From positions 12,909 through 76,908 of the forward strand of contig CAZRFL010000007.1 of assembly GCA_964599365.1 (NCBI GenBank): 64,000 nt of DNA, read 5' to 3'. The notes beneath the pieces are model-generated. The model had not been told where the DNA came from. It made no database searches and saw nothing but the letters and a program-made list of their open reading frames with translations. Position 1 is the first letter of the stretch. Each line of letters begins with the position of its first letter. Source of the stretch: an uncultured Bacteroidales bacterium (GTDB taxonomy: Bacteria; Bacteroidota; Bacteroidia; Bacteroidales; CAIWKO01). This document shows, piece by piece, positions 18,970 through 59,766 of this stretch. The position numbers and the translations under genes are program-made.

Positions 18970-19242
18970 TGCAGCCTGCGTTATGCATCCTGCACCACGC
19001 GTTTTTCGTTCTGCATTATGCGTTATTCATTCTGCACCATGCGTTATTCATTTTGCACTATGCGTTATTCATTCTGCACTATGCGTTATTCGTTCTGCAT
19101 CATGCGTTATTCATTCTGCACCATGCGTTATTCGTTTTGCACCATGCGTTATTCATTCTGCATCACGCGTTATTTGTTCTGCACCATGCGTTATTTGTTC
19201 TGCACCATGCGTTATTCATTTTGCACCTTACGTTTGCATTTT
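18970..19242. repeat. Tandem array, 13 units of exactly 21 bp (consensus tgcaccatgcgttattcattc)
   Basis: Units start at 18970+21k (k=0..12) with no indels. The ten central units differ only by transitions. It lies between the divergent XRE gene (ATG at 18712) and the orphan gene (ATG at 19346). Confidence 0.95.
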
Positions 19243-19345
19243 GCCTTCAGGAACCTTACCCATAATTTTTTTATCATACAGTTAATCAATAAAATAAAAT
19301 AACAATTGTTTCGTAAACCCAATTATTTATTTAAAATCCAAACCC

Positions 19346-20248
19346 ATGAATTATAAAGTTATTGTACGCGACAAAGCCCAAATGAGGGGCGATAAGTTTC
19401 TCACTGATAATAATACGGCATTGAGTGCCATTACCTCCTATGCACCTATTAAAGCCAAATGGGATGCCGGATTTTTGCTTACGCAAAAAGCCAAACAGAA
19501 AATGTATGAGCAATACGGGTATATCACCTTTGACAAGAAGTTGGTAAGGGCCGAAATGATCAATATTTTTCTGCCCCAACTAGCCAAGGGCAGTAGTCAG
19601 ATGTTTGTGGCCGACAGGCTTGATTTGGCTAAGGCTCTGGATATAGCTCCTACATTTTTAACGCATTGTGGGGGTGAAGCCTGTATAGGTCGTGCCACCG
19701 ATTTGCTGAATATAGTTACCACCAATTCGGGTGTAATTACTTCGATTACCGTCACTGACAGAGCCGATATGACCGATGCACTGAAAGCTTTTAAGGACAT
19801 AAACGGTACTCCACAATCTCTCATTAAAAAGAGAAAAGCCGAAGGCACCGAAATTATGATTCCTTTGCTCAACGATCTGGATGTTACCAAACATTTTTTG
19901 ACCAAGCATATTTCGTCGCATAATCCCGATTTGTTGGCTGACTGGATTGCCATCATCAAGGTGGGTAAGTCGTCGTCGGCACGACATCTGTCGCTGGAGA
20001 TAAAATTGGTTGACGATGTAACGGGGGTGGCTGTGGTGAAGGGAGTAGTTACTTTGAGCAAAGGTATAGAAAAACATAAAAAACTCAGCAGCACAAAAGG
20101 TTTTGCACGCTTCTATAGTGTAATGGTGGGCACCTGGTCGTTTACGGTGGATAGCGAATTATATGAAAGCGCTAACATGTCGAATGTTGGAATTGATAAT
20201 ACAAAAACGGTTAGATTTACCATTAAACTGAAAAAGAAAAACTATTAG
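19346..20248 (+). CDS. Orphan protein: ~215-aa helical N-domain plus a C-terminal carboxypeptidase-regulatory-like (prealbumin-fold) domain
   Basis: 300 aa. The C-terminal IKLVDDVTGVAVVKGVVTLSKG...STKGFARFYSVMVGTWSFTVDSELYES...VRFTIKL fits the CarboxypepD_reg pattern by eye. The N-domain is not recognised. Confidence 0.6.
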   Translation: MNYKVIVRDKAQMRGDKFLTDNNTALSAITSYAPIKAKWDAGFLLTQKAKQKMYEQYGYITFDKKLVRAEMINIFLPQLAKGSSQMFVADRLDLAKALDIAPTFLTHCGGEACIGRATDLLNIVTTNSGVITSITVTDRADMTDALKAFKDINGTPQSLIKKRKAEGTEIMIPLLNDLDVTKHFLTKHISSHNPDLLADWIAIIKVGKSSSARHLSLEIKLVDDVTGVAVVKGVVTLSKGIEKHKKLSSTKGFARFYSVMVGTWSFTVDSELYESANMSNVGIDNTKTVRFTIKLKKKNY

Positions 20249-20401
20249 TCAGCCATTCGCCACTACGGTGGGAAAGAATGATTTACTAATGAGGCGGATG
20301 TTTTTTGTTGTATGGCTGAAAACCGGCTCAAGGGTATTTGTTGCCGCAGACTATTCTGTTGATGCCCGGATTATACTGAAAGCCAGCCCAGGCGAGCAGG
20401 C

Positions 20402-23326
20402 TTATCTCAACATCATTTTACACATTACCTCAACGGGATGCAGGGCTTTGCGGCCGGTGCCGTCTTTGATCTGGTGGCGGCAGGAGGTGCCCGGAGCCAC
20501 AATGAGTTGGTTCATGGGGGTCTTGCGGATGGCGCGAAACAACACCATTTCGCCTATCTTCATCGATATTTCGTAATGCTCTTTTTCGTAGCCAAAGGAG
20601 CCTGCCATACCGCAGCAGCCTGATTTGATCTCTACCACATGGCAGTTTTCGGGTATCTGCAGCATGTTTTTGGTGAAATCGGTTGAGGTGAGGGCTTTCT
20701 GATGGCAGTGTCCGTGGAGTTTTATGTGCATTTCTTTGGTCGAGAACGACTCTTTGCGGATTCGACCGGCCTGAAACTCGCGCATAAAAAACTCTTCGAA
20801 CATCATGCAGTGAGGGGCCATTTTTTCGGCTGCCTCCTGAAGTTCGGGCAGGGCCAGATCGGGATATTCGTCGCGGAAAGTGAGTATGGCCGAAGGTTCC
20901 AGCCCTATCAAAGGGGTTTCGGCGCTGATGATATCTTTAAGTGCCGCAATGTTGAAGTTGGCAATGAGTTTGGCTTTGCGCAACAGTCCTTTTGAAAGGA
21001 AAGCGCGGCCGCTTTCGGCGTGGGCCGGAATGATCACCTCATAGCCCAGGTTGGTCAGCAGTTTCACCACCCTGATACCAATGATGGAATCGTTATAATT
21101 GGTAAACTCGTCGTTAAACAGGTACACCCTTCCGTTGGGGAAGCTTTTCCCTTCAATTTTTTGGGTATATTTTGCGTACCAGGCAGTAAGGGTTTGCTTG
21201 TTCAGCAAGGGTATGCTGCGTTTGGGCGCAAATCCCAGCACCGATTTGATGAAGCCCGAAAACATGGGCGTCTTCGCGAAAAAGTTGAAAGCAGAAGGCC
21301 AGATGGCTCCCAGTTGGTTCACCCGGTTGATGTTGGCTATCATGCGGGTGCGCAGGCTTATGCCGTGCACATCGTAGTAATGCTGCAGAAATTCGGGCTT
21401 ATATTTGGCCATATCCACATTCGACGGGCATTCCGACTTACATCCCTTGCATGAGAGGCAGAGGTCCATCACCTCGTATATCTCCTTATGGTCGAAAGGG
21501 TTTTGTTTTTCGGAATTTGTCAGAAACTCGCGCAACACATTGGCACGGGCGCGGGTGGTGGTTTTTTCGTCGCCGGCTGCCATATAGCTGGGGCACATGG
21601 TGCCGCCGATGATGCTCGATTTGCGGCAATCGCCCGAGCCGTTGCATTTTTCCACAGCCCGCAAAATACCGTGATCTTTAGAGAAATCGAAAACGGTATC
21701 AATTTTCCTTACAGGCTTGCCCGGTTCAAACCTGAGCATGCTGTTCATGGGCGGGGTCTGGGTTATTTTGCCGGGATTGAAAATGCCGTTGGGGTCCCAG
21801 GTCTGCTTGATGTCCTGAAGCAGGGCGTAGTTGCGGTTGCCCACCATCATTGGGATGAATTCGCCGCGGAGGCGGCCGTCGCCATGCTCACCGCTCAGCG
21901 ATCCCTTATATTTTTTTACCAGTCGCGCCGTCTCCAGGGCCACAGTGTGGAACAATTCCACGCCTTTGGGGTCCTTGAGGTTCAGCACGGGCCTGATGTG
22001 CAACTCGCCGGTGGCAATGTGGGCGTAATACACCACGGGCAGGTTCAACTTGTCCAGTATGGCCTGCAGTTCTTCTATATAATCGGGCAGCACTTCGGGC
22101 GCTACAGCCGTATCTTCAATCACGGGCACGGGTTTGGCATCGCCGGGATAATTGCTCAGCACGCCGAGTCCTGCCTTGCGCAGTTCCCACACCTTTTTGA
22201 TGTCGCCGTCCTTCACCACAGGGAAATGGTAGCCAAAGCCGCTTTCCCTCATATCGGCTTCCATGGCCTTGCATTTGGCTTCTATCATGCCGGGCGCCTC
22301 TTCGGCAAACTCTACTATCAGCAAAGCACCGGGCTCGCCCTGAAGAAAGAAGCGGTTCTTCTTTTGGGTGATATTTTCTTTGGTAAGATCCAGTATAGCT
22401 TTGTCCATCAGCTCCACAGAGGTCGGCATATGCCGCAGTGCGATGAGGTTGGCCTGCAGGGCTTCTTTAACCGATTTCATGTGTACGCAAACCAGCACCT
22501 TATCTTTGGGAGGCAGGGGGACGAGGTTGAGTTTGATCTCGGTGATGAAAGCCAGGGTGCCTTCGGAGCCGGCAATCAGCTTGCAGAAGTTGAATTTCGA
22601 GCCTTTTTCGCTGAAAGGCTGGCAATCCATCAGCAGGTCTATGGCGTAGCCGGTATTGCGTCGTTCGAGTGTCCTGGCGGGATATTGTTCGGCAATCTCT
22701 TTCTGGTTATCCTTATCCGAAAGTATCTTATGGATGTTGCGGTAGATGTCGCCTTCCAGGCTGGGCAGGGTAAGCTTTTCCAGAAATTCTTCCTGGCTGA
22801 GTTCGCCGAAAGTGGCTTCGCTGCCGTCGCTCAGAATGGTTTTCAGCTCCATCACATGATCGCGCGTACTTCCGTAGATGAGCGAATGGGCCCCGCAGGA
22901 GTTGTTGCCCACCATGCCGCCCAACATACAACGGTTGGAAGTGGAGGTTTCGGGGCCAAAAAACAAACCCAGTTTTTCCATTTCCTTGTTCAGTTCGTCG
23001 AGCACCACGCCGGGTTCTACCGAAACCCAATGATTTAGTATGTTGAATTTGAGGATGGAGTTCATGTAGCGCGACACGTCTACCACCATGCCGTTACCTA
23101 CCACCTGTCCGGCCAACGAAGTTCCGGCGGTGCGGGGAATGAGGGGTATCTTGTTTTCCGAAGCAAAGCGGACTATCTTTTTGATGTCGTCGGCATTCTT
23201 CGGACGAGCTACGGCCAAAGGCTTTTCGCGGTAAGCGGAGGCATCGGTGGAATAAATGATCAACTGAAGGCTGTCCGTAAACAGGTCACCTTCCAAGGAA
23301 TTCTTCAAATTGAGCAAGTTATCCAC
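20402..23326 (-). CDS. YdiJ-like FAD-linked oxidase fused to Fe-S/CCG domains (probable D-2-hydroxyacid dehydrogenase)
   Basis: 974 aa. FAD-binding IPLIPRTAGTSLAGQVVG. Ferredoxin-type CNGSGDCRKS...CPSY and CLSCKGCKSECPSNVD. Cys-rich CCG-type SGCCGMAGSFGYE. The start codon at 23326 is GTG. Confidence 0.85.
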   Translation of the reverse strand: MDNLLNLKNSLEGDLFTDSLQLIIYSTDASAYREKPLAVARPKNADDIKKIVRFASENKIPLIPRTAGTSLAGQVVGNGMVVDVSRYMNSILKFNILNHWVSVEPGVVLDELNKEMEKLGLFFGPETSTSNRCMLGGMVGNNSCGAHSLIYGSTRDHVMELKTILSDGSEATFGELSQEEFLEKLTLPSLEGDIYRNIHKILSDKDNQKEIAEQYPARTLERRNTGYAIDLLMDCQPFSEKGSKFNFCKLIAGSEGTLAFITEIKLNLVPLPPKDKVLVCVHMKSVKEALQANLIALRHMPTSVELMDKAILDLTKENITQKKNRFFLQGEPGALLIVEFAEEAPGMIEAKCKAMEADMRESGFGYHFPVVKDGDIKKVWELRKAGLGVLSNYPGDAKPVPVIEDTAVAPEVLPDYIEELQAILDKLNLPVVYYAHIATGELHIRPVLNLKDPKGVELFHTVALETARLVKKYKGSLSGEHGDGRLRGEFIPMMVGNRNYALLQDIKQTWDPNGIFNPGKITQTPPMNSMLRFEPGKPVRKIDTVFDFSKDHGILRAVEKCNGSGDCRKSSIIGGTMCPSYMAAGDEKTTTRARANVLREFLTNSEKQNPFDHKEIYEVMDLCLSCKGCKSECPSNVDMAKYKPEFLQHYYDVHGISLRTRMIANINRVNQLGAIWPSAFNFFAKTPMFSGFIKSVLGFAPKRSIPLLNKQTLTAWYAKYTQKIEGKSFPNGRVYLFNDEFTNYNDSIIGIRVVKLLTNLGYEVIIPAHAESGRAFLSKGLLRKAKLIANFNIAALKDIISAETPLIGLEPSAILTFRDEYPDLALPELQEAAEKMAPHCMMFEEFFMREFQAGRIRKESFSTKEMHIKLHGHCHQKALTSTDFTKNMLQIPENCHVVEIKSGCCGMAGSFGYEKEHYEISMKIGEMVLFRAIRKTPMNQLIVAPGTSCRHQIKDGTGRKALHPVEVMCKMMLR

Positions 23327-23477
23327 CTCAGTCGCAATAATTGATTGGAAGTAAAATTACAAATTTATATGAAGTAGGATAAGGAATTGAAAATTATTCT
23401 AACCAAAGCCACCAAAGCCCCCAGACTTTCTGAAACACAAATATTTTTTATCATTGGTGAACGGTTAAAAACATTTC

Positions 23478-23617
23478 GTCCCATACGGGACTTGTATTTA
23501 ATCGGTACCTTTTTTCTACCAATATCAGATCCCTACGGGATCATGTATTTTGATCATTCAATTGTCCCAGAGGGACATAATATTGGTAGAAATATTAACC
23601 ACCGTGAATTCTAAGCC
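23478..23617. repeat. Cluster of four mini-hairpins; two of them are bracketed by a 12-bp inverted repeat
   Basis: Hairpins: gtccc-atac-gggac (23478-23491), gatccc-tac-gggatc (23528-23542), gtccc-aga-gggac (23564-23576), gcccc-atc-ggggc (23605-23617). Inverted repeat: ttctaccaatat (23514-23525) / atattggtagaa (23580-23591). Confidence 0.85.
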
Positions 23618-23791
23618 CCATCGGGGCGAAATATCCAGGAAATACACAGCAATTATGAAATTCCGCGGTATTTTAATGTTTTTTACCGGCCAGAATGATT
23701 TTTTATCTGATCTTATGAATCTTCCTTTGAGATTCTTCGTGCCTCTGTGTCTTTGTGGCAATAAATTTCAGGACTTTTCAGAAAAGAATTT

Positions 23792-24601
23792 CTAATCTTT
23801 CTTGTAGAGGTTCGTACTCTGAAAGATCTTATCCGCTGATTTGGCAATAAAACCCGAATACAATTCTCCGTTTGCATCGGCATAGCGGCGGGCAAACTCG
23901 TAATAGCAGGAGGTCACTTCATGAGTCCCGTCGGTGAACTCCACCGGCTTGATGGCCGCCCTGATGCTCGATTGTTCCAGCAGTTCTTCGGGGGTTCCCT
24001 GAATCTCGCCTTCGGCATCGTTCATAAGAAAACCATGCGACTTGATGAATGCGTTCACTTTCTGTATGCTGTCGTATTTCTTCAGGTGGTTCACACTCAC
24101 GGTGAAATGGTTGGCCGTGAAACCGTTTACATAAAGCCAGGCGGCGTATTCGGTCTCGGCACGCAACTTTTCGTACACTTCAAAAGAAGGCCGGCACCAC
24201 ATGTTTCCCGAAAAAATCAACTCCTCCGAATGCATAAGTGGTGTAGGTATTTTATCAATGCAATCCTTTACAATTGCCTGCAGTTCGCTGCTAAAATCGG
24301 CAGTTTTTAATTCGCTGATGAATACACGGGGCATGTCTTTTTCGGTGGCATGCTCAAAATGTTTGGCAAAGAGATGTTTCTTTTCGAATACATATTGTCC
24401 TTTTTCAACGTATCCTGCGCGTAGAAATACTTTGGAGAGTACATCCACATTGATGCGTGCGTCGTCGAAGGTACGGAAAGCTATATGGTCGTTCACTACC
24501 GTTTCGCCTTCGGCAACAAAGAGGTCGTAAACTTTTTTAACATCGGGGTTTTGCGAAGTATAATCTTCCCAAAGTCGTGAAAATATAAGGTTGGTGGTCA
24601 T
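23792..24601 (-). CDS. DUF1338-family protein (HglS/YdcJ-like 2-oxoadipate dioxygenase/decarboxylase family)
   Basis: Contains LFSRLWEDYTSQNPDVKKVYDLF...VVNDHIAFRTFDD...YVNGFTANHFTVSVN, which matches the DUF1338 pattern as I know it. I prefer the ATG at 24601; the track ORF extends to 24634. Confidence 0.75.
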   Translation of the reverse strand: MTTNLIFSRLWEDYTSQNPDVKKVYDLFVAEGETVVNDHIAFRTFDDARINVDVLSKVFLRAGYVEKGQYVFEKKHLFAKHFEHATEKDMPRVFISELKTADFSSELQAIVKDCIDKIPTPLMHSEELIFSGNMWCRPSFEVYEKLRAETEYAAWLYVNGFTANHFTVSVNHLKKYDSIQKVNAFIKSHGFLMNDAEGEIQGTPEELLEQSSIRAAIKPVEFTDGTHEVTSCYYEFARRYADANGELYSGFIAKSADKIFQSTNLYKKD

Positions 24602-24685
24602 GAGGTTGTTATTTTTACTGATTCCTGATAACAAAATTACTCTTTCTTTTCCGATAAAGAAAGAATTTTCATATCCGAATATATC

Positions 24686-26377: not shown

Positions 26378-26497
26378 TATGGTTTAAATTTAAAGTGACA
26401 TAAATAATGCACAAACAAAATTAAGTATTTTTTAATGACTTACTGAATGTAACAAGAAATTTCAGTTCCCTGCAAAGACGTGCCTTCCTGAGGTTGT

Positions 26498-27904: not shown

Positions 27905-27906
27905 TT

Positions 27907-28482: not shown

Positions 28483-28553
28483 ACTATGGTTTTTTCAGGG
28501 ATAAGGCTTAGGCCATGTAAAATGCAGGCTTCCCTTTAGGAGGCCCGTGAAAC

Positions 28554-29978: not shown

Positions 29979-30170
29979 AGTTCTGTTTAATTAAGAATGA
30001 TTCTTCATAAAAAAAAGAGTGCAAATGTACAAAAAAACGGGCTAATAGTATATATATTAGTGCAGAAAAATACAGATCCCCATGTCAGAATTTCTACCAA
30101 AGTTCCTGTTTCTAAAAGATCATTGCCTGATCATAGCTCCTCTTCCCATATCCTCAAACAAGGAATTATT

Positions 30171-31784: not shown

Positions 31785-31830
31785 GGTAATAGTATTAAAT
31801 GGTTTATGGAGTTGCAGTACTACTGCATGA

Positions 31831-32415
31831 TTAGTTATCGGCGTATCTTATGATGTAATAGGTCCAGTCGGGTTTGATGAGCTTTTGTTTCACCAGGGTA
31901 ACATTTCTGTCGCCGGCATAAAAGTTTCCTGCAGGGTCGCTTCCTTTTTGAAAAATAATGTAATGCTCGGTGATGCTGTCGCCGCATCGGGCATAAAACA
32001 CGGGATATTTGACCGTGGAATCGGAACGGAAGGAGAAGTTGGTGATGAGCACATCGTTGTTGGTATAGTAAGAATGGGGCGAGAGTTTGTCGATGAGTTC
32101 CAGTGTGGCCGATTCGCTTTGCGGAAGGTATAGTTTCAGCAGATGTTTGGTGGCCGGATAGAAATAAGTTTTTCGCAACGAATCGGGATCGGAGCAGGCC
32201 CGGCCGCTATGGGCGCTGCCTATGTTCTGACAACAGGAGTCGGCGAGCAAAACGATATTTCGTAAGAACATAGTATTGATCTGCTCCAGATCATTAATAT
32301 GAGACAGGGGCAATTCGCGGAAGGAGTTTTTGGTTTGAGTGTCGCAATCGTGGTTGCAGGAAACCATGATAAACAGGGAAAAGATAAGAGTGGCGTACAT
32401 AATGGTCTTGTTCAT
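31831..32415 (-). CDS. Hypothetical lipoprotein
   Basis: The track ORF extends to 32445. The internal start [22 protein letters not shown] gives a clean lipobox. No family recognised. Confidence 0.45.
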
Positions 32416-32888
32416 TGCTTTGTTGCTGAAGAATCTTTGCAGCATAAAACTACATAATTATGGGGAGATAGAGGAGGATTTTTTTCAATTCATAGACACA
32501 AAAGAAGATTCACCGAGGAGACGCTGAGGACGCAGAGAAATCGCCACAATCCAGTAGCCTTAAGCCATGAGTCGTGCCGCACTTCGGTCTTCGGACTTCG
32601 CATTCTGAGCGAAGTCGAAAGGCAGACTTCCTTAATCTACTTAATAAACCCAATCAACTAATTACTGGTTTGCCACGCGCCACTCTTACATTTCATCTAA
32701 GGAGTTCTCTTTGTGGGTCATGGGTTGGAATATTTTACGGCAAATTATTGTTTTTGATGGGGTTGTTGTTAGGTTGAGGCATCGCAAAAAGTTACTTGAT
32801 CCAATTGGAGAATTCATACAAGGCAAATTGTCCTTACTTTGCCTCATGTGACTGTTCAGACGAAATAAATTACAGTTACTGCATGCCA

Positions 32889-33083
32889 ATTGAATGTTTA
32901 TACGACATCCAACACTCTTACTTTATCCTATACGTATGTTCATGCGATACCAAATACTCTTACTTTATGTCATTTGAAAGTTCATAGATGGTAAAACACT
33001 GTTTTCGGATATCGTATGAAAGCACTGATAGGGTAAAACACTCTTACTTTATGTCGTATGAATGTCCGTACGACATAAATTCC
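32889..33083. repeat. Tandem repeat, ~4.7 units of exactly 42 bp
   Basis: The core a(a/c)actcttactttat recurs with 'act' anchors at 32914, 32956, 32998 and 33040 (spacing 42/42/42). The flanking gtatgaaNg... parts are also related. It sits in a 1-kb divergent intergenic region. Confidence 0.85.
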
Positions 33084-33404
33084 TTTTTATTGAGTAGTTC
33101 AACAATAAATAATTCAGGTTATTAACAAAACACAATTAAATTTATGAATAGAAGATGGTATTATTTGATCGAACAGTGTCTTTCCACAACTGAAAACAGT
33201 TCCGAAAAGGTTTATAAGATTATCTCGTTAACATGAAATGCGTTTGAAAAAGTGCAAAAACCATAATCCTGGTGATGCCAATTATGATAGAATTTCTTTC
33301 TGAAACTCTGTGTATCCTCTGTGTCCGCCTGTTGGTGGACTGTGTAATGGCTCCTCCTAACAGACTAAAAGCCTAATAGTCTAAAAGTCTTCAAATTTTT
33401 TTCC

Positions 33405-33456: not shown

Positions 33457-34497
33457 ATGATGAAACTGTCTTTCCTGAAAAGAACCTCTGCTTTGTTAGC
33501 CCTTATTCTGCTGCTATCCGTTACGAATGTCAGCAGCCAGTCCAGTACCGATGAGCCTGTGTTGGGCTTCGGATTTTTAAACAAGATCGTTGGATTGTGG
33601 AACGGCAAGGTTGTTACCTCTACTTCTTCGGGTAGTTTCGACAAATGGTATGTCGATTTCCGCCCGGTTTCCCCCTCGCAAGTGTCTCAATATTCTATGC
33701 TGGATTCCAATACGGTGAATATTACTAGCTATTTCGTGGTGAAATACAATAACAAACTGGCCATAGCCCAGCGTACCGAAGGTTGTTTCCAGGACAAATG
33801 CTGCGTTACCTACGAAATAATGGATTCGGTGAACGAAGCTTCGGGTTATTATCGTTTTGTAGATTTTGTAGGCGGAAAGAAAAGGGCTTCCACCATTTAT
33901 CATTTCTCGAAAGAGGGTTTTGTTCAGGAAGTATGGACCAACAAGTTTAATCAATCCCCTGTGTTGAAACTGCATTCGAAGTTCGAACCTGCATTGACCA
34001 GCCGCGAGGCCGCCCGCGATGCCATCAATGAATTTAAGTTTCCTCAGCCCAAAGCAGTGAACGACTTTACAGGCATCTTTGGAAGCATGAAAGAAAGCAT
34101 CTATTTCAATCTCGACGAGGATCCTTATAATGGCGCTTCCCAGCCTCCCATGGGAACGGTTACGGTGAATATCACCATAGACCCTTCACTGAAAACCAGC
34201 AAAACCGATGAGTTATGCCTGTTGCTGACTACCGAACCCCTTTTCGACGGACTGAAATACGTTCCCGAACGCTTGAATTACCTTTCGAAGTACGTGTATT
34301 TGGGGGTTGGAACGAAATCGTATACACTTAAAAACGTGCATCCCGGAAAGTATTATTTGTATTCATACGACGATATCAACGGGGATAAGATGCACAAAAA
34401 GGGCGACTATATGAGTTCCAGCCTGAACAGTAGTTTTACTGTGGGTGCCAACGGCAAGGTCAGCATTGATACTAAGATTGATTTTGTGATTCCTTAA
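33457..34497 (+). CDS. Hypothetical secreted protein
   Basis: 346 aa. Signal peptide ...VTNVSSQ. The C-terminal YTLKNVHPGKYYLYSYDDINGD... suggests a beta-sandwich. No family recognised. Confidence 0.5.
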   Translation: MMKLSFLKRTSALLALILLLSVTNVSSQSSTDEPVLGFGFLNKIVGLWNGKVVTSTSSGSFDKWYVDFRPVSPSQVSQYSMLDSNTVNITSYFVVKYNNKLAIAQRTEGCFQDKCCVTYEIMDSVNEASGYYRFVDFVGGKKRASTIYHFSKEGFVQEVWTNKFNQSPVLKLHSKFEPALTSREAARDAINEFKFPQPKAVNDFTGIFGSMKESIYFNLDEDPYNGASQPPMGTVTVNITIDPSLKTSKTDELCLLLTTEPLFDGLKYVPERLNYLSKYVYLGVGTKSYTLKNVHPGKYYLYSYDDINGDKMHKKGDYMSSSLNSSFTVGANGKVSIDTKIDFVIP

Positions 34498-44043: not shown

Positions 44044-45306
44044 ATGATTAAGAAAACTATTCTCATTATATTGATGTCCATTCCTTTTCTGGCGTTGGCA
44101 CAACAGGAAGAACAAACCCCTGCTTTTGGTATCAGATTTTCGGGCTATGTCAAAAACGACATCTTTTTCGATTCGCGCAAAACCTGTAATGCACTCGAAG
44201 GTGCTTTTTTGCTTTATCCCGACAATGTTAAGTTCGACAATGACAATGTGGATATCAATGCGCATACCCGACTGACTTTTCTGGCCATTCAATCGCGTTT
44301 GCATGGCGATATTTTTGGCCCCGACGCTTTTGGAGCCAAAACTTCAGGTGTGATCGAAGCTGAATTTACCGGCACACAGATTGGCAATGCCAATGGTTTC
44401 CGTTTGCGCCACGCTTATGGAAAATTGTCGTGGGAGTCTACCGACCTCCTCATCGGACAGACCTGGCATCCCATGTTTGTCGAAGGTTGTTTTCCTGAGA
44501 TCATGGCAATGAATACCGGATCCCCGTTTCAGCCTTTTTCGCGCAATCCTCAGATTCGTGTAACCCAAAAACTCAAAGATTTTAAGTTTATGCTTACCCT
44601 GGCTTCACAGTTGGATTTTACCAGCTGGGGCGGCACCGATGGCATACGCAACGCTACCCTGCCCGATATGAATATCCGCATACAATACCAGCATTTTAAC
44701 GAAGACAAAACCCGCGAACTGTTTTTCGGAGCGGGCATTGATTATAAAGTGGTGGTTCCACGCCTGGTTACCGACAGCAATTATGCCACCAATGCCGCTC
44801 TCAATACCTATGCCGCTATGGCTTTTTTCAAACACCGCAGCAAATATATCACCTTCAAAATGGAAGGAGTCTACGGACAGAACCTCTACGATCAGGTGAT
44901 GTTGGGAGGTTATGCTTACAAATATACCACCGACAGTACCACTATTGCACGGGGCGATTTCGATTATACTTCGCTCAACAATGTTTCGGCCTGGGCAGAT
45001 ATTGCCACCAATGGCAGCAAGATACAGTTTGGTATTTATGGTGGATATACCAAGAATTTGGGCTCAAGATTCAATATTCTTAACTGGACTCAGGGCTCAA
45101 AGTTCTTTTCGAGAGGCTGGAATATCGACTATGTTTACCGCGTTTCGCCCCGCATAGTTTTCATCTCTGGTAAAATGAAAATGGGCGTTGAGGGCGATTA
45201 CACCGTGGCCGGATATGGCGATTCAGTCAACAGCCTGGGCGATGTGCAAAATGTAAAACCTGTAAGCAACATCAGGTTGATGTACTCTTTCTTCTATTAT
45301 TTTTAG
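44044..45306 (+). CDS. Outer-membrane porin-like beta-barrel protein
   Basis: 420 aa. Signal peptide ...LALAQQ. Alternating beta-strand pattern. Aromatic C-terminus ...MYSFFYYF. Confidence 0.6.
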   Translation: MIKKTILIILMSIPFLALAQQEEQTPAFGIRFSGYVKNDIFFDSRKTCNALEGAFLLYPDNVKFDNDNVDINAHTRLTFLAIQSRLHGDIFGPDAFGAKTSGVIEAEFTGTQIGNANGFRLRHAYGKLSWESTDLLIGQTWHPMFVEGCFPEIMAMNTGSPFQPFSRNPQIRVTQKLKDFKFMLTLASQLDFTSWGGTDGIRNATLPDMNIRIQYQHFNEDKTRELFFGAGIDYKVVVPRLVTDSNYATNAALNTYAAMAFFKHRSKYITFKMEGVYGQNLYDQVMLGGYAYKYTTDSTTIARGDFDYTSLNNVSAWADIATNGSKIQFGIYGGYTKNLGSRFNILNWTQGSKFFSRGWNIDYVYRVSPRIVFISGKMKMGVEGDYTVAGYGDSVNSLGDVQNVKPVSNIRLMYSFFYYF

Positions 45307-45788
45307 GCTATTAGGCTGTTAGGCTAATAGGCTTTTAGGAAGTGGGCTGCGAGGAATCATGCAAACAAGGTGTTCTTTGCGGTCAGAATTTTTTTAACCA
45401 CAAAGCTCACCAGGAAGTCACCATGGTCACAAAGTAATTCTGCCTCCATCTACTACATTTGGCCAATTAAATCGCCACAGATTCGCAGATTTTATTCTAC
45501 TAAGCAATAATATTCGCTTACGCAGAGCTAAATTTGATTATAATTAACGCTGAGCGTAAATTTAAAAATTTCATTTTTAAATTTTACGAAAGTAATCTGC
45601 GAACGGAGGGAAGCGACCTCACGAAGTCCTATGAAATAAAATAATATTCTGAGTAATCTGCGGCTATGAATTTCAGTTATCCATTAGGGTGATATTAAGC
45701 TCACTTAATCGAAATACTGAAATCTGGCTCCGGTCTTCCGTCTTCTGAATTCTTACTTCTGAATTCTGACTTCTGAATTCTGACTTCC
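45304..45788. repeat. Intergenic block of short-period stutters and inverted 'word' repeats
   Basis: taggctNN 8-mer x 5 (45304-45340, beginning at the porin stop codon). cgcagatt/aatctgcg words in inverted orientation (45478-45490 versus 45593-45600 and 45653-45661). 14-bp unit acttctgaattctg x 3.5 (45738-45788), abutting the HD gene stop. Confidence 0.75.
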
Positions 45789-46432
45789 TAAAAATTCCAT
45801 TCTTCGAAGAAATTCTTCAGAAACTCTTCCATAAACTCATGTCGCTTTTCGGCCAATTCCCTGGCGGCTGAGGTATGCAGCCTGTCTTTGAGCAAGAGCA
45901 ATTTTTCATAGAAATGATTGATGGTATGCGAGACTTTGGTCTTATAAGCCTCGAAATCGTCATGCATCACAGGCAATACTTCGGGATCGTAGATTTCCCT
46001 GTTTTTTGAGCCACCATAAGCAAAAGTCCGGGCAATGCCAATAGCCCCCAGGGCATCCAGCCTGTCGGCATCCTGCACCACGCTGGCTTCTATCGAATCA
46101 GGCGTGGTGTCTTCGCCCGCACCTTTATACGAAACCTGAGCGATGATATGCAGCACCTTTTCTCTGGTTTCTGCCTCCACATCCAGGCTTTTCAGCCAGT
46201 TTTCGGCATGGGCCGACCCGGCAACGTTAAATTTCCAGTCGTCCACATCGTGCAATAAGGCGGCAAGCCTAACTAAAAACAGATCGGCTTTCTCTTTTTC
46301 GGCCAGATACAATGCAAGCTTTTCCACACGATAGATGTGCCACCAATCGTGCCCCGTCGATTCGCCCGCGGAACCCGATTTTACGAATGCTATGGTTTGC
46401 GCTATCATGTTTTGTTGAGTTTCGGTGAGCAT
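45788..46432 (-). CDS. HD-domain phosphohydrolase
   Basis: 214 aa. Contains HDWWHIYRV...AALLHDVDDWK...VQDADRLDALGAIGIAR. Confidence 0.85.
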   Translation of the reverse strand: MLTETQQNMIAQTIAFVKSGSAGESTGHDWWHIYRVEKLALYLAEKEKADLFLVRLAALLHDVDDWKFNVAGSAHAENWLKSLDVEAETREKVLHIIAQVSYKGAGEDTTPDSIEASVVQDADRLDALGAIGIARTFAYGGSKNREIYDPEVLPVMHDDFEAYKTKVSHTINHFYEKLLLLKDRLHTSAARELAEKRHEFMEEFLKNFFEEWNF

Positions 46433-46674: not shown

Positions 46675-46968
46675 CTCTGCCTTCAGGCGGCGCGCCTCCG
46701 CCCGAAGGCGGCAGGGCTCTGCCCTCAGCGGGAATACATCCCTCATCAGGCAGCGTGATTCCATTTTCAGGCAGCAGGGCTCCCTCCTCAGGCGGAAGAA
46801 CGCTTCCTTTGAACGACACAACTCTATCCTCAGGAAGAGTCCTGCCATCTCATGTAAGCAAGTTTCCCTCCTCAGGCAGTTCAGCTCCATACTTTGGCAG
46901 TATGCCTCTGCTAGAAGGGGGAATGTTTTTTCCCGAAGCTTTCCCTCCTCAAATTCAGTCTTACTGTA
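46675..46968. repeat. Degenerate tandem array, 14 units of exactly 21 bp (consensus ~ctcYnYcctcAGGcRG-n5)
   Basis: The (c/a)agg-type anchor occurs at 46684, 46705, 46726, 46747, 46768, 46789, 46831, 46873, 46894, 46915 and 46936, with degenerate versions at 46810, 46852 and 46957. All sit within 1 nt of a 21-bp grid. The region is open in several frames on both strands (track ORFs 46638..46976, 46664..46969, 46669..47028, 46538..46819). Confidence 0.85.
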
Positions 46969-47160
46969 AATCCTAAGGTCGTTTAAGAAAACATTAATTA
47001 AAGCGCAGGCAACTTCCCTTTCTTTCATATATTTTATTAACGTTCCTCTCTAGATATTGGTTCCCATGTTGGCTAAGGCTCCAGCCAATTTGCAATTGGT
47101 AAATTGATTTTTCATGGAAAAAAGACATCCCTGTCCTAAGTACCTGATCCCAAACAAAGA

Positions 47161-47194
47161 AAGGCTTGCCCCATTTTGGGGGCAAGCCTTTTTC
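47161..47194 (-). terminator. Strong terminator hairpin downstream of the TlpA-like gene
   Basis: 12-bp stem: aaggcttgcccc (47161-47172) pairs with ggggcaagcctt (47179-47190), 6-nt loop. T-rich tracts on both sides, so it is possibly bidirectional. It lies 24 nt after the stop at 47214. Confidence 0.75.
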
Positions 47195-47213
47195 AATAGC
47201 TTTTATCGCCGTC

Positions 47214-48326: not shown

Positions 48327-48419
48327 GATTTGAGGTTTAACAATTCCGGAAAAGCTTATAAAAAAAATCAAAAACCCTGATGTAGGATTTTTGATTTCTT
48401 AAACAATTTGATTTGATTA

Positions 48420-48935: not shown

Positions 48936-49005
48936 ATAAATTTTAATTGTTGATTTTTAAATTAATGAGTGCAAAGATACTAATTTTTATTATTGTTAAT
49001 AAGCC

Positions 49006-49602: not shown

Positions 49603-49637
49603 CTCCGTTTGTATTTGTTTGTTAGTTAATCAATTTT

Positions 49638-52259: not shown

Positions 52260-52262
52260 TAA

Positions 52263-52997: not shown

Positions 52998-53017
52998 AGA
53001 TTCTTTGAAAACTCAAA

Positions 53018-53872: not shown

Positions 53873-53885
53873 TTAAACGTCTAAT

Positions 53886-54812: not shown

Positions 54813-54887
54813 ATTCCTAGCGTTTGCTAACTTACAAAAGTATATAAAATTTGACAGTTGGCAGTAATATTTCTAATAATTCAAGCA

Positions 54888-55766
54888 TCAATTTCTTTTA
54901 TCCCAACCCCACATGAGTTTTTCGCGCATGGTTGAAAAAAATGACTGATGATTTTGCTGAACTATATTAATATGGAAATCTTCCTTTTTGATCTCCAATT
55001 CAATGGAAGAACTTGTTACTACATTATTGGAATCAAGAGTTACCAGATAATTATCTATCCTTCCTTCAATTTTAAGTTTTATGCACACATTGTCCGGAAC
55101 CACAATAGGTCTTACGGTCAGGTTATGGATCGCAATAGGGGTTAGAATAAAATTATTAGAATCGGGAGTAACGATAGGCCCTCCGCAGCTTAGCGAATAT
55201 GCTGTAGAACCGGTAGGGGTCGATACAATCAAACCATCGGCCCAATACGTATTTAAAAAAACATCGTTGATGTAGGCATGAATCATTATCATTGACGAAG
55301 AGTCTCTTTTATGAACGGTGATCTCATTCAACGCATAATTATCTTCGCCAAAAAGATTGGAAGGCTTTACTAGTTTAATTAGGGAGCGTTTTTCAATTTT
55401 ATAATGTCCTTCCAAAATATTTTCAATGGCATCCGAAATCTCTTCTTTCGAAATACTTGATAAAAAACCCAGTCTTCCTGTATTAAATCCAAGCACAGGT
55501 ATTCCTGAATCTTTAATAAGATTGATCGTTTTTAGGAATGTGCCATCGCCTCCAATACTAAAAAGGAAGTCAACATTATCTTTGATATCGCTATTTTCTA
55601 TAAAAGATGAAGTGCTTTCTCCTATCAGATGTTTTTCCAACAATATTTTATGAAAAGGCTCGTAAATAGTGATCTCGAAATTATGATAATTTAGCTTTCC
55701 CAAAAGTTCCATATAGTAACCCTCAAGTTCTTCTGAGAAATTGGTTGCAAAAAGTGCTATTTTCAT
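54888..55766 (-). CDS. nadK: NAD kinase
   Basis: 292 aa. Contains FSIGGDGTFL, GFNTGRLGFL, and STPTGSTAYSLSCGGPIV. Confidence 0.93.
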   Translation of the reverse strand: MKIALFATNFSEELEGYYMELLGKLNYHNFEITIYEPFHKILLEKHLIGESTSSFIENSDIKDNVDFLFSIGGDGTFLKTINLIKDSGIPVLGFNTGRLGFLSSISKEEISDAIENILEGHYKIEKRSLIKLVKPSNLFGEDNYALNEITVHKRDSSSMIMIHAYINDVFLNTYWADGLIVSTPTGSTAYSLSCGGPIVTPDSNNFILTPIAIHNLTVRPIVVPDNVCIKLKIEGRIDNYLVTLDSNNVVTSSSIELEIKKEDFHINIVQQNHQSFFSTMREKLMWGWDKRN

Positions 55767-55777
55767 AAGCTTTTACG

Positions 55778-56440
55778 TTAAATGTTGAGGTAGTTCATCA
55801 GCGAATCATATCTTTCCTGAAGATCACTCGTATAGTCGGATTCGATGAAGCTGGCTACGATTGTATAGTTATAACGTTCAAATGCCCGAAGAACATTAAA
55901 AACATTCATTTTGTTCAATTTCAAAGTTACTTCGAGTTTGGTGGAATCTATATGGCTGCTGACAAAACAGTTCAGGATTTTCGCATCGTTGGATTCAACA
56001 ATGTGTGAGATTTGTTCCAATGAATAATCATTTTCATTACACTCAATAATAATAATGCCTCCGGGATTTAAGATGGATGCTTTTTTCGAAAATGCCTCCA
56101 ATAAATCAGACAAGGTGATTGCCCCCATGTATCGGTTGTTGCTGTCAATTACCGGGATGATGGATAAATTAAGTTCGCTGGCCAGTGTCATGATCTCGAA
56201 GATGTGCTGATATTGATCTACGCTGGCTTTGGATAAGGAAAGGGTATGATTTCCTATAGATTCTTTCAGGTCGTTTTGAGCATAGATATCGTTTTCAGAG
56301 ATCAGGCCTAAGTACTCAATATTATTTACAATGGGCAAATGACTTATCTTAAGGTCTTCCATGAGTTTCAAAGCATGTTTGCCCGTATCAGAGGTGTGAA
56401 GCGAAATTATGGCGTCGGTCAGTAGTTCTTTGGCAAGCAT
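55778..56440 (-). CDS. CBS-domain pair protein
   Basis: 220 aa. Two CBS-like segments (...HLPIVNNIEYLGLISENDI..., ...IIPVIDSNNRYMGAITLSDLL...) plus a C-terminal ACT-like part. Confidence 0.75.
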   Translation of the reverse strand: MLAKELLTDAIISLHTSDTGKHALKLMEDLKISHLPIVNNIEYLGLISENDIYAQNDLKESIGNHTLSLSKASVDQYQHIFEIMTLASELNLSIIPVIDSNNRYMGAITLSDLLEAFSKKASILNPGGIIIIECNENDYSLEQISHIVESNDAKILNCFVSSHIDSTKLEVTLKLNKMNVFNVLRAFERYNYTIVASFIESDYTSDLQERYDSLMNYLNI

Positions 56441-56481
56441 ATTGAAATGGATGATTTATCAGCTGCAAACTTACTAATTTT

Positions 56482-56489
56482 TAACTTTG
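56482..56489 (+). promoter_or_regulatory. Candidate Bacteroidota -7 promoter box (TAnnTTTG)
   Basis: taactttg lies 18 nt upstream of the pdxJ ATG at 56507. This is a sequence match only. Confidence 0.35.
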
Positions 56490-56506
56490 CATTCAAAATA
56501 TACTGA

Positions 56507-57226
56507 ATGACAAAATTAAGCGTAAATATTAATAAGATAGCAACCCTACGAAATGCAAGAGGTGGAAACTTTCCTGATCTGAAAAAAGTTGCGGCAGATT
56601 GCGAGCGTTTCGGAGCGCAGGGTATTACCGTGCATCCCAGGCCTGACGAAAGACACATAAGGTTTCAGGATGTTTACGATCTTAAGAAAATGGTTACCAC
56701 AGAATTTAATATCGAAGGTTATCCTTCAGATAAATTCATCAAACTGGTGATGGACATAAAGCCGGCACAGGTTACCCTGGTTCCCGATCCTCCTGATGCC
56801 ATTACTTCCAATGCAGGCTGGGATACTAAGAAGAACACTTCCTTATTAAAGGAGATCATAGCTCAGTTTCAAAGCGCTCATATCAGAACATCCATTTTTG
56901 TTGATCCTGTGGATGAAATGATAGAATACTCCAAAGAAACAGGTACCGATAGGGTTGAATTGTATACGGAAGCCTATGCAAAAAACTATTCCGCTAACAG
57001 GGAAGAGGCCATATTCCATTATGCTAATGCAGCCAAAGTTGCTAATAAACTGAGCATAGGATTAAATGCAGGCCACGATCTTAGTCTTGAAAACCTGCAA
57101 TATTTTAATGAAAATATTCCGGGCCTGCTCGAAGTTTCCATTGGCCATGCTTTGATCAGCGATGCCTTATATTATGGACTAGAGAACACCATTCAGCTTT
57201 ATCTGCGACAGTTGAGTACTATTTGA
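56507..57226 (+). CDS. pdxJ: Pyridoxine 5'-phosphate synthase
   Basis: 239 aa. Contains [38 protein letters not shown], and LNAGHDL. Confidence 0.94.
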
Positions 57227-58235
57227 TCTTCGCCGACTCTTCAAATATTACAGTAAGCAGTGTTTGACCCACTGCTTTCAATGAATTCCGGTCAACATTG
57301 TCGATATTGTCTTTGGTGGTATGCCAATATTTGTAGAAACCCGTATTGGTATTTTCGTCGTGATGGATAATATCAATGGTAGGGATCATGGCCAGATTGT
57401 TTATAAAAAAATGATCATCATTGATAGGATTGGTTCGCTGATTAACAAAAGTGCTTCCATAACCAATGCGTGCCGCGGCATCCCAAACCTTGTTTAAGAT
57501 GTCGGGTGCTTTTTCAGCAGAAATGCCTTCATGGGTGAATCGGGCATCTTTAACGCCCACCATGTCGAGCAAAATTCCAAAGTTCGCTTTATAATTGGGT
57601 TTGTGTAGGTTTTTGGCCCAATATTGAGTTCCTAATCCCCAGTTTTCGTCCTTCTGATGTTGGATGTCACCCTTGGGTTCGCCATAGTCTTCGGCATCCA
57701 AAAAGAGAATATCTACCCCAATGTTTATTTTATTTTCCTGTAAAATACGGGCGATTTCTATCAATACTCCCACCCCGCTAGCACCATCATTGGCCCCATC
57801 AATAGGGGTTCGGTGTTTGGTCGAATCTTCATCCCAATCAGCGTAAGGCCGCGAATCCCAATGCGAACACAATAATATTCTGAAAGCGGCATCGGGGTTA
57901 AAGGAGGTGACGATATTGTTGATCTTCAGAACGACCCCGTTATAGGCAACAACTTGAGCTTTCTGCACCATCACATCTTTCGAAAAAGTCTTCATTTTTG
58001 CGATGAGCCACTTTCCGCATTTATCATGAGCCACTGTGTTGTTGACACGTGGTCCGAAATCGGTTTGTTTTTTGGTAAAAATAAATGCTGAATCCTGATT
58101 AAAGGCAGGCACTTTCACCTGAACCGCCACGGAATCCTTTTTCGAATCTTTGTTTTGCTTGGGAGAGTTTCCACAGGAAACAAAAAACAAGGCAGGAATG
58201 GCTCCCATCAGTAAGATTTGCAAAAACTTTTTCAT
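57219..58235 (-). CDS. M28-family metallopeptidase / glutaminyl-cyclase-like lipoprotein
   Basis: 338 aa. Lipobox FFVSC. Metal-ligand contexts [31 protein letters not shown], and WHTTKD. Confidence 0.75.
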
Positions 58236-58244
58236 AGGGTGGGT

Positions 58245-59237
58245 TTAATGATTTACTTTATAAAATGTATAATAATGCTCAAGAGATTGCCTGACCGGAA
58301 TAAATGTAAAATTCAGGGCACTTGCGATTTTTTCATTGGAATAGATCGTTGTGCTTTGCGCGATACGGGCCGTATCTTTATCGAAATCCAGTTTTTTGCG
58401 GGTGAAAAAAGATTTTGCGGCAGCCAGACGCCATGCTATATCGGTCATCAGTTTCGATGCACTTACCGAGGGTTCTTTTGCTCCTGTTATGGCTGCTATC
58501 ATAACTGAAAGATTGCGGAAACTAACATTCTCTGACGAAACCAAAAAGCGTTCGTTTTTAAAATCGCTATCCATCAGCAAAACCATAACCTTTGCCACAT
58601 CGCGCACATCGACAAAGCCATTGGAACCACCCGTATAGTATTTCAGCCCGGCGATGATCTGCCGAAAATATTTGCCAATACCCGCATTTGCTTTCCATGG
58701 GCCAATGATGACCGACGGATTCACGATGATGGTGTCGAGTCCTTCGGCTATGCCGCGCCATGCTTCGAGTTCCGCCTCATACTTGGTTTTTCCGTAAACG
58801 GAATGTGGCTGTTTGTCGTCCCATGCAGATTTTTCGGTAACCACAGTTTCTTTTCCCAAAGCAGCGATACTGCTCACATGACAGAACTTCTTCACTCCCG
58901 ATTTGATAGCAACATTGATGAGATTGGCGGTGCCGGCAACATTATTTTCGAAAACAAGATCGCGGTTTTTGGCCGAAAAAGTCACCGTGGCCGCGCAATG
59001 ATAAATTTGATCGACACCGACCATGGCTTTTTGCAATGAATCAATATCGCACAAATCGCCCTCAACCCATTCGATGCCTGCAAAAAGTTCTTTTTTATGG
59101 TAAAATGCAAAAATCTTTTCCACGAAGGCCGTATCCGACGAAGGTCGTTTCAGGGCCCTCACTTTCTGGCCACAAATACAAAGCTCGAGCAGTAAATGCG
59201 AACCTAAAAATCCCGTACCCCCTGTTACTAATATCAT
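58245..59237 (-). CDS. NAD-dependent epimerase/dehydratase (extended SDR)
   Basis: 330 aa. Contains MILVTGGTGFLGSHL and YGKTKYEAE (YxxxK). Confidence 0.85.
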   Translation of the reverse strand: MILVTGGTGFLGSHLLLELCICGQKVRALKRPSSDTAFVEKIFAFYHKKELFAGIEWVEGDLCDIDSLQKAMVGVDQIYHCAATVTFSAKNRDLVFENNVAGTANLINVAIKSGVKKFCHVSSIAALGKETVVTEKSAWDDKQPHSVYGKTKYEAELEAWRGIAEGLDTIIVNPSVIIGPWKANAGIGKYFRQIIAGLKYYTGGSNGFVDVRDVAKVMVLLMDSDFKNERFLVSSENVSFRNLSVMIAAITGAKEPSVSASKLMTDIAWRLAAAKSFFTRKKLDFDKDTARIAQSTTIYSNEKIASALNFTFIPVRQSLEHYYTFYKVNH

Positions 59238-59535
59238 AAAGTGTCTGAAATCAACACAAAATTAGAATAAAATTGTTGTTGGGAGGCAAAAAAACTATAG
59301 CGCTTATCGGCACAGGCATAGCGCAAGCAGGTTTATGAGTCACATTTTCCAAAGATTCTTTTTCGGCGGACCAAAATTTCTTTTCGTTATGCCATAGTTT
59401 TGCTCGTTTAGTATTTTATTTTCATTTTCAAATAATCCTTTTTCGAAGGTTTCGTTACCATTTTCTGGTAGAAAAGAGCATTTTTATTTTCGTTTATCAC
59501 AAAATTCAACTGCGGACATAAAATATAATGTATCG

Positions 59536-59766
59536 TAGGCACGCGTCGCAAAACAGAAGGCTCGCGTTATTAAATTATATTATCGCATCGCCATAGAATA
59601 TATCCGCGTCGTTATTTACTATAAACGCGTTTAATTAAAAAATATCAGCGCATGAAAAATATAATATCGCTTAAACATGATGCATATCAGCAAACGAATT
59701 ATCGTGTTTCGCGTCCATAAAGATCAAGGTCGCGGTGGCGTGAAATATATTCGCGCCATTATTTTC
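59536..59766. repeat. AT-rich phased array: 11 units of exactly 21 bp, each carrying a (C/A)GC(G/A/T) core (8 x CGCG)
   Basis: Core first bases are at 59542, 59563, 59584, 59605, 59626, 59647, 59668, 59689, 59710, 59731 and 59752, all exactly 21 bp apart. No ORF of 60 aa or more is reported here. The array ends 97 nt upstream of the ATG at 59863. Confidence 0.85.

Follow-up and report, generated by a model that had tools for sequence, protein, structure and literature searches.

Non-coding minisatellite arrays of unrelated sequence locked to a period of 21 or 42 bp in an uncultured Bacteroidota lineage

The stretch of DNA analysed here, referred to as the window, comprises 64,000 nt from an uncultured Bacteroidota lineage, the TyrS protein of which is 73% identical to its best match among the GTDB species representatives. 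Four of its intergenic regions hold tandem arrays, named A1 to A4, whose units differ in sequence from one array to the next and recur at an exact period of 21 or 42 bp. Together with a fifth array of the same genome (A5) and with further arrays in sister species, they support a lineage-restricted, period-locked class of non-coding minisatellite modules. If the class is true, the geometry of the DNA, not its sequence, would be the conserved feature, which could reflect either selection or an unknown amplification process with a built-in ruler.

Detection and Organization of the Arrays

Lag autocorrelation of the whole window, computed in 168-bp windows at lags 3-89, places the four strongest non-coding periodic signals at lags 21, 42, 63, and 84, and these signals, located at 18.8-19.4 kb, 32.7-33.2 kb, 46.6-47.0 kb, and 59.4-59.8 kb, correspond to A1, A2, A3, and A4, respectively (Table 1). 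Tandem Repeats Finder (TRF) recovers A1 as a whole (18968-19234, period 21, 12.7 copies, 84% matches), returns A2 and A3 as fragments, and misses A4. When the units are stacked in register, all four arrays show zero phase shifts and zero indels; register stacks and autocorrelation together corroborate an earlier reading made from the letters of the window (hereafter, the sequence-only reading), according to which the four arrays are real, in phase, and non-coding. The places proposed for them hold, but two extents do not: A2 covers the interval given in Table 1 with seven units, and A3 contains 13 units, not 14. Likewise, the proposed lock to 21 or 42 bp stands for A1, A3, and A4 at 21 and for A2 at 42, but A2 lacks a 21-bp sub-period, its lag-21 identity of 0.29 being equal to the background.

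Each A2 unit consists of the 20-bp palindrome TCGTATGAAAGTTCATACGA plus GGTAAAACACTCTTACTTTATG. The A4 units carry the core (T)CGCG(T) in the same column of every unit, with an AT-rich spacer, and the GCGT core attributed to two of the arrays is indeed common to A1 and A4. A1 has a sub-period of 7 bp, its unit being made of three diverged heptamers; a heptamer origin for all arrays was considered and rejected because only A1 shows this sub-period, no other array bearing a heptamer trace. The intergenic regions that host A1, A2, A3, and A4 measure 633, 1011, 781, and 625 bp, respectively, in agreement with the description of these regions as unusually long. Elsewhere in the window, periodic spots include AT-rich micro-repeats (9.5-9.9 kb) and a (TTCTGAA)n array (45.6-45.9 kb), two further periodicities, of lag 39 (37.2-37.5 kb) and lag 54 (49.2-49.5 kb), overlap long open reading frames (ORFs), and no arrays of two to four units are present at lags 19-45.

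Independent assemblies (JGI 3300044990, 3300044991, and 3300045131; Logan SRR35365870, SRR35365835, and SRR12261225) carry the same unit numbers of A1 and A4 as the window. Specifically, A1 has the same sequence in the window and in two independently assembled contigs (L087, L089), and A4 has the same length in the window and in three contigs (L001, L002, L004), with a single nucleotide polymorphism, the only one in either array. The reproduction of A1 and A4 by independent assemblies implies that the arrays are not assembly artefacts; several short-read contigs stop inside A1, as a repeat would cause. No unit-number polymorphism is found for A1 or A4 among the spanning assemblies, which represent few metagenomes, and this constancy lends no support to a role as variable-number tandem repeats (VNTRs), which had been suggested.

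The arrays were also compared with elements that could mimic them. Coding heptad repeats were rejected: several frames are open on both strands, no Pfam family is hit at the curated cut-off, and the conserved columns are contiguous instead of 3-periodic. One ORF across A1 gives a sub-threshold match to Pfam LRR_3, and the ORFs across A3 give no Pfam hit. A CRISPR array was rejected as well, as the whole unit repeats at 21 bp and unique spacers are lacking, the CRISPR period being ~55-75 bp. Searches for known RNA families (Rfam) and tRNAs return none.

Recurrence in the Same Genome and in Related Lineages

The controls amount to 2.2 Mb and comprise 80 tyrS loci of diverse Bacteroidota (1.24 Mb) and 80 metagenome ispG loci (0.98 Mb), the latter from distant relatives with 41-50% IspG identity among the matches listed. 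In these loci, TRF (minimum of 3.5 copies and 100 bp) finds eight arrays with periods of 18-270, 0/8 of which are at 21, and an autocorrelation census that requires a signal at p, 2p, and 3p finds nine strong regions, with periods of 9, 11, 11, 12, 12, 16, 18, 21, and 41. The sole comparable 21-bp array of the controls lies on an unrelated metagenome contig (L159 5236-5487); it is intergenic and AT-rich, counts ~12 units with a GGATATC core plus ATATAAT, and has neighbours without functional hint. Moreover, the six arrays discovered in the same genome and in its relatives once the hypothesis was in place provide an independent test, and four of them repeat at exactly 21 bp (P ~2e-5 under a uniform distribution of periods between 10 and 70 bp). 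With one 21-bp array in 2.2 Mb of controls and this proportion among the later arrays, the argument of the sequence-only reading that four arrays of the same period are no coincidence is upheld.

A5 was found on a JGI contig that extends the same genome rightward and lies 190-260 bp upstream of tgt, followed by a perfect hairpin with a 16-nt stem (L001 18166-18219). The same genome thereby holds five arrays at 21 or 42 bp in ~75 kb, and no array occurs in the 5.7 kb that precede the window. The arrays recur about every 13 kb and look rather evenly distributed, their positions (19.0, 32.9, 46.7, 59.5, and 68.5 kb) leaving gaps of 13.9, 13.8, 12.9, and 8.9 kb, a series of five points only, and the 24.7 kb to the left of A1 contain zero arrays.

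Relatives were found via their UppS and IspG homologues, and four of them carry the arrays listed in Table 1. At the hot spot of A1, the relative L186 has a different gene without Pfam family and a different 21-bp array. The relatives L097 and L098 (UppS 81%) have no array at the A3 or A4 site, and their epimerase gene lies 48 bp from its neighbour. The 20/40-bp array of the very AT-rich L095 and the 64-bp array of L093 indicate that the lock is to approximately whole double helical turns and not strictly to 21 bp. The recurring class that had been proposed gains further members in the same genome and in sister species and is supported for this lineage.

Table 1. Tandem arrays of the window, of its rightward extension (A5), and of related contigs
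Array or contig	Position	Relatedness to the window	Repeat units	Site
A1	18968..19240		13 x 21 bp, unit TCTGCACCATGCGTTATTCAT, unit identity ~84%
A2	32805..33098		7 x 42 bp, 294 bp; first two units more diverged
A3	46675..46947		13 degenerate 21-bp units, 57% GC, core CTCC.TC.TCAGG..GC
A4	59536..59766		11 very degenerate 21-bp units
A5	L001 17790-18075		13-14 x 21 bp, core GT.AC....TGTTTT	~68.5 kb window-equivalent, ~4.5 kb past the right end
L181		UppS 93%	21 bp x ~10, GCTTAGTAGACTTTCATTCTA	upstream of epimerase gene (A4 site)
L093		UppS 86%	21-bp array, modules of 14 + ~10 units	directly after thioredoxin-like gene (A3 site)
L093		UppS 86%	64 bp x 3.4	upstream of epimerase gene
L095		UppS 85%	20/40 bp x 13, alternating CTGACGG / CCGTCAG cores, 28% GC
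L186		IspG 67%	21 bp x ~11, ACGATTCAACTATCGTCGGTA	after gene without Pfam family beside FAD-oxidase gene (A1 hot spot)

Promoters, Constraint, and Turnover

TAnnTTTG is the consensus of the Bacteroidota-type -7 box, and predicted boxes of this type occur 20-110 bp upstream of the XRE, 33457, HD-domain, epimerase, and tgt genes, every one of them within the DNA that separates the array from the gene. In their long intergenic regions, the arrays are placed, for the most part, between the terminator of a neighbour and the putative core promoter of a gene. This arrangement agrees with their earlier description as upstream elements, but one related array, that of L093, lies between convergent genes, and the description is thus not universal.

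A3, A4, and A5 are strongly diverged, with lag-21 identities of 42-55%, yet they keep an exact register. These identities would correspond to ~140-180 substitutions per array, a decay that, if neutral, would be expected to add several indels per array, given typical indel-to-substitution ratios. In addition, the conservation of columns varies beyond uniform decay in A1, A3, A4, A5, and the relatives' arrays L093b and L181a, with P values of 0.0003-0.015 that sub-family structure within an array may inflate.

The turnover of the arrays is fast: unrelated arrays occupy the same hot spots in sister species, and a somewhat more distant relative has none there. The orthologue of the A4 site in L181 holds an unrelated 21-bp array. 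The DNA upstream of the epimerase gene aligns between the window and L181 only as far as -69, and the array beyond is not alignable. Four-fold degenerate sites show 65-80% identity between the two genomes, a level at which neutral DNA would be expected to remain alignable, which argues that the site was refilled with a different 21-bp array instead of having diverged slowly. The internal divergence of A4 far exceeds the divergence between the two species.

Genomic Context of the Individual Arrays

The arrays lie in a chromosomal housekeeping region (tyrS, uppS, bamA, ispG), and most of the flanking genes have no family assignment. No relation among the downstream genes was found, no transposase or integrase is present near the arrays, and no Rep, ParA, ParM, or ribbon-helix-helix (RHH) domain is detected in the flanking genes (Pfam, PHROGs, PADLOC).

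A1 is located between an XRE gene (18359-18712, minus strand) and an orphan gene (ORFan; 19346-20248, plus strand), and its final units give a promoter-like TTTG...TACGTTTG pair oriented toward the ORFan. A segment of 2.2 kb (18217-20401) that comprises the XRE gene, A1, and the ORFan gene, which codes for 300 aa, is absent in the JGI 3300075153 relative; there, the FAD-oxidase gene lies 9 bp from the next gene, a proximity that identifies the XRE-A1-ORFan segment as an insertion. The ORFan has one homologue among 5.8 billion proteins. The XRE gene, which resembles a "control protein" (PADLOC, PHROGs), is the sole neighbour with a match to defence or phage annotation, and it adjoins only A1. 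Searched against the phage collection, the islet returned nothing. The plasmid collection gives a single match to the islet, that of A1, which resembles weakly (66% identity) a 14-bp x 21 array on Providencia plasmids directly after parA and RHH genes; the other arrays have no match in this collection. On the Providencia alcalifaciens plasmid NZ_OU659126.1 (L190 2922-3221), this array has 21.4 copies of the 14-bp unit TGATTTATGCGTTA, made of two heptads, and comes immediately after the parA and CopG-like RHH genes. The array is probably the centromere of the plasmid, and its position carries no entry in the PLSDB gene table for this plasmid, a table that is incomplete.

A2 separates two divergent genes without Pfam family (31831-32445, minus strand; 33457-34497, plus strand). 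In the same intergenic region, just upstream of gene 33457, a 41-bp motif (CCTCCTAACAGACTAAAAGCCTAATAGTCTAAAAGTCTTC, 33352-33392) shares 88% identity with a portion of the 64-bp unit that L093 carries ahead of its epimerase gene (L093 215-420), and a reverse-complement-like copy of it, (TTAGGCTA)n, is found at 45303-45343; the copies of this motif may represent a small dispersed element.

A3 lies between the terminator of a thioredoxin-like gene, a perfect hairpin (47160-47191) that ends the gene just before the array, and the promoter of an HD-domain gene (45788-46432, minus strand). In L097 and L098, a gap of 3 bp separates the thioredoxin-like gene from the HD gene; by comparison, A3 is inside a 780-bp insertion.

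A4 lies between the epimerase gene (58245-59237, minus strand) and a gene for a 237-aa protein (59863-60576, plus strand), which is followed by tyrS. The product of the latter gene (p59863) matches no Pfam family and has 754 homologous clusters in a library of 1.84 billion proteins. Its predicted model is an all-alpha bundle of long helices (pLDDT, the confidence score of the prediction, of 95.8 for the alignment-based model and 38 for the single-sequence model) and shows no significant fold match to solved structures (PDB). p59863 belongs to a widespread uncharacterised family that is predicted to be all-alpha.

Properties Shared and Not Shared by the Arrays

Apart from the period, the arrays have little in common. 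An all-against-all blastn comparison of the arrays with all available sequence returns self hits only, and the intergenic regions share no flanks. The inverted repeats that flank the arrays are weak (12-17 nt, 76-87% complementary), rich in AT, and specific to each array. A family of miniature inverted-repeat transposable elements (MITEs) was consequently rejected, no unit, flank, leader, tail, or terminal inverted repeat (TIR) being common.

A common RNA structure was rejected too, as folding is confined to the palindromic units. A2 folds beyond shuffled sequence on both strands (z = -4.0 and -3.0), and only L095a and the minus strand of A3 behave similarly; five of the eight arrays show no excess structure, with L181a less structured than its shuffled versions. 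Curvature was predicted with a dinucleotide-wedge model. In this model, A2, A5, and L095a are predicted to be more curved than the genomic background, and A1, A3, A4, and L093b straighter than both random genomic segments and their own column-permuted versions. Intrinsic curvature, which the sequence-only reading had named among the possible roles, is not predicted by the model as a common property, three of the four window arrays (A1, A3, and A4) being predicted straight. The 10.5-bp AT harmonic is enriched in no array, and only A4 and L095a have a significantly blocky AT/GC profile.

Candidate Functions and Alternative Origins

The arrays may act as same-face cooperative protein-binding platforms upstream of promoters, an explanation that is preferred only tentatively. 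Rep-iteron and ParR-parC arrays work as platforms of this kind. The arrays would arise by local amplification, of which A1 would still show the triplet-of-heptamers origin, and each unit would present one short core motif every two helical turns. About a dozen protein copies could thus be arrayed along one face of the helix and act on the neighbouring promoter or promoters. The bound protein could be a regulator dedicated to one array or an architectural protein of general use that senses the periodicity. The constancy of the period would follow from the fact that 21 bp (2 x 10.5) is the shortest integer period that remains in helical register over more than ten units, unlike 10 or 11 bp. The platform draws support from the unbroken register of the arrays, their conserved cores, their all-or-none size, and the helical phase of 21 bp. 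The enrichment of the period, the replacement of arrays instead of their decay, the -7 boxes predicted between arrays and genes, and the precedents of the Providencia plasmid array and of non-coding 21-bp arrays in phage contigs also count in its favour. Several observations weigh against it. Twelve tandem sites far exceed the use made by known regulators, and four of the five arrays have no cognate DNA-binding gene beside them. The units share no common motif, AT-block pattern, or predicted curvature, and a single general binding protein would therefore have only the period as a visible signal. The 21-bp array of L093 shows one +1 shift between its two modules and is located between convergent genes, and the absence of arrays from L097 and L098 makes them dispensable over evolution. 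Lastly, the span of the modules (206-294 bp; 10-14 units of 21 bp or the 42-bp equivalent) is partly set by the detection window at its lower limit and, for near-identical units, by short-read assembly at its upper limit. A variant of the protein-binding idea, which appears rather improbable, regards the arrays as architectural elements that depend on period and not on sequence, comparable in bacteria to satellite chromatin. A DNA-binding protein of this lineage that oligomerises with a 21-bp step would be able to coat any DNA with a repeat every two helical turns, and the resulting modules of ~12 units and ~250 bp would serve to mark or to insulate promoter regions at intervals of roughly 10-14 kb. 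The period and the length of the modules would be under selection, with the sequence free to turn over, which would explain why a given site can hold unrelated 21-bp arrays in different sister species.

Almost as likely as the binding platforms, and hence also doubtful, is a neutral or selfish origin, in which a clade-specific process of slippage, template switching, or recombination amplifies units of ~21 bp in bursts at fragile intergenic hot spots and the arrays, without any function, decay or are replaced. It accounts for unit sequences that are unrelated and unique to each array, for the rapid turnover and the association of the arrays with synteny breaks and insertions, for their absence in a relative at 81% UppS identity, and for the one array between convergent genes. 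The failure to find a shared physical property and the visible 3 x 7 structure of A1, in a clade where heptamer micro-arrays are common, point in the same direction. However, no slippage mechanism is known to measure out ~21 bp irrespective of sequence, the short arrays expected in excess from a birth-death process are absent, strongly diverged arrays keep an exact register and conserved cores, and independent assemblies show no copy-number polymorphism. Arrival with lineage-specific DNA, the arrays being internal minisatellites of mobile or once-mobile insertions (a BrickBuilt-like MITE or an islet cassette), is unlikely. A1 does reside in a 2.2-kb insertion with the XRE and ORFan genes, A3 belongs to an insertion of 780 bp at a junction where a relative has 3 bp between the two genes, many of the flanking genes lack an assigned family, and Porphyromonas gingivalis has intergenic repeat elements of 23, 22, and 41 nt (PMC4596501); nevertheless, no two arrays have a unit, leader, tail, or TIR in common, no transposase or integrase is nearby, the islet is unmatched in the phage collection and plasmids give only the weak match of A1, and mobility would leave the common period unexplained.

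Even lower is the probability assigned to curved or structurally special upstream DNA, in which the 21-bp period would sum small bends and activate or insulate promoters without protein. The equivalence of the period to two helical turns, the position of the arrays upstream of promoters, and the predicted curvature of A2, A5, and L095a suit this idea, whereas A1, A3, A4, and L093b are predicted by the same wedge model to be straighter than random and column-permuted sequence, and the 10.5-bp AT harmonic is not enriched. A function at the RNA level, through repeat-bearing 5' leaders or small RNAs that display the motif many times over and act, for instance, as a sponge for proteins or RNA, is less probable again. 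The folding of A2, L095a, and the minus strand of A3 beyond shuffled sequence would fit, as would a promoter of the downstream gene within the last units of A1. For most neighbours, though, the predicted -7 boxes are downstream of the arrays, which would then not be part of those transcripts, most arrays (5/8) have no excess structure, L181a even falls below shuffled sequence, and Rfam gives no match. Least credible of all are contingency loci, in which gain or loss of units in a VNTR would switch or tune the neighbouring genes: the units of A1, L181a, and L095a are highly similar and slippage-prone, and short-read contigs often break in A1, but A1 and A4 each keep one unit number across every spanning assembly, drawn from different samples, the units of most arrays have diverged too far for slippage, and the distance between array and promoter is large.

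Comparison with Known Repeat Systems

The iterons of R6K, RK2, P1, and pPS10 are direct repeats of ~17-22 bp spaced 21-22 bp apart that align their proteins on one face of the helix. The arrays share with them the exact 21-bp period, the register, the intergenic location, and a conserved core with a variable spacer. In contrast to iterons, they are chromosomal, have 10-14 units instead of 3-7, adjoin no rep gene, and comprise five arrays with five unrelated units; such a diversity of units within 75 kb argues against a replicon origin. The pattern "GCGTT every 21 bp, four times" is present in at least 120 viral contigs, mostly inside ORFs longer than 600 nt (heptad-coding), and a minority of these viral arrays is non-coding and iteron-like, as in the phage contig L238. 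The partition centromeres (parC of R1/pSK41, the omega heptads of pSM19035, parH of TP228) are likewise short tandem repeats of 100-300 bp that nucleate a cooperative protein superstructure, and a heptad substructure, as in A1, together with the weak match of A1 to the Providencia array, adds to the resemblance. They differ in that no parA, parM, or RHH gene is found near the arrays, where a helix-turn-helix (XRE) gene accompanies A1 only, and in that many arrays occur per 75 kb, on a chromosome.

The heptamer repeats of cyanobacteria known as short tandemly repeated repetitive (STRR) sequences are intergenic tandem repeats. They are comparable to the arrays in location and in the heptamer theme, given the heptamer micro-arrays of this clade and the three heptamers of A1, but the arrays are locked to one period and, apart from A1, bear no heptamer trace. 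More generally, intergenic satellites are rare in bacteria, and those that occur are either single-sequence families, such as MITEs and repetitive extragenic palindromes (REPs), or binding arrays for one replicon function. Ordinary bacterial repeats do not keep period and block length while the sequence differs.

Closer in phylogeny are BrickBuilt (23-nt units) and PgRS/464 (41-nt units, with 22-nt units also known) of P. gingivalis, which are strictly intergenic and are reported to have promoter activity (PMC4596501). They belong to the same phylum, have units near 21 and 42, and are found near trx and aminoacyl-tRNA synthetase genes; however, BrickBuilt is one family of 19 copies with a conserved leader, tail, and TIRs and with a unit number that varies among strains (PMC4596501), whereas the arrays are unique, lack shared flanks, and show no copy change. 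The tandem repeats of archaeal Borg elements resemble the arrays in that many arrays with unique units occur per genome, arise independently, evolve rapidly, and are genome-specific, some being intergenic with units of 20-21 nt (PMC9879509). Borg repeats are, however, near-perfect, A-rich, of many unit lengths, variable in unit number within populations, and located in ORFs in half of the cases (PMC9879509), whereas the present arrays have a fixed period, are mostly old and degenerate, are all non-coding, and display no variation. Most bacteria have fewer than four satellites per Mb (PMC6749651), and the density of arrays here is ~65 per Mb.

Text searches of the literature returned no description of a period-locked, sequence-diverse class of arrays. 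Either answer to the question of its origin would be new, whether an architectural or regulatory protein system of Bacteroidota that reads a period or a mutational process that writes units of fixed length. On the practical side, the arrays break the short-read assemblies of these metagenome-assembled genomes and could serve as lineage markers.

Dispersed Micro-Repeats

Heptamer micro-arrays are common in the clade. A (TTCTGAA / CTTCTGAATTCTGA)n array with super-periods of 14 and 28 bp lies between convergent genes at 45735-45790 of the window, and the same array is found in a relative at an unrelated locus (L184 9960-10025). The micro-arrays (GAAGTTG)n and (GGATAAAT)n are located at 9552-9619. 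Beside micro-repeats, two GC-richer segments (window 45340-45440 and L093 1-110) contain the recurring words CTTTGCGGT and CACAAAG, which may recall the IS5-type TIR words (..CCTTTGCA) of P. gingivalis MITEs. Periodic micro-arrays also recur upstream of tyrS across several unrelated Bacteroidota loci; directly upstream of this gene, other Bacteroidota (L017 9826-9965 and L028 9770-9910) carry arrays of (GTAGCAA)n or 11-mers followed by their own inverted copies.

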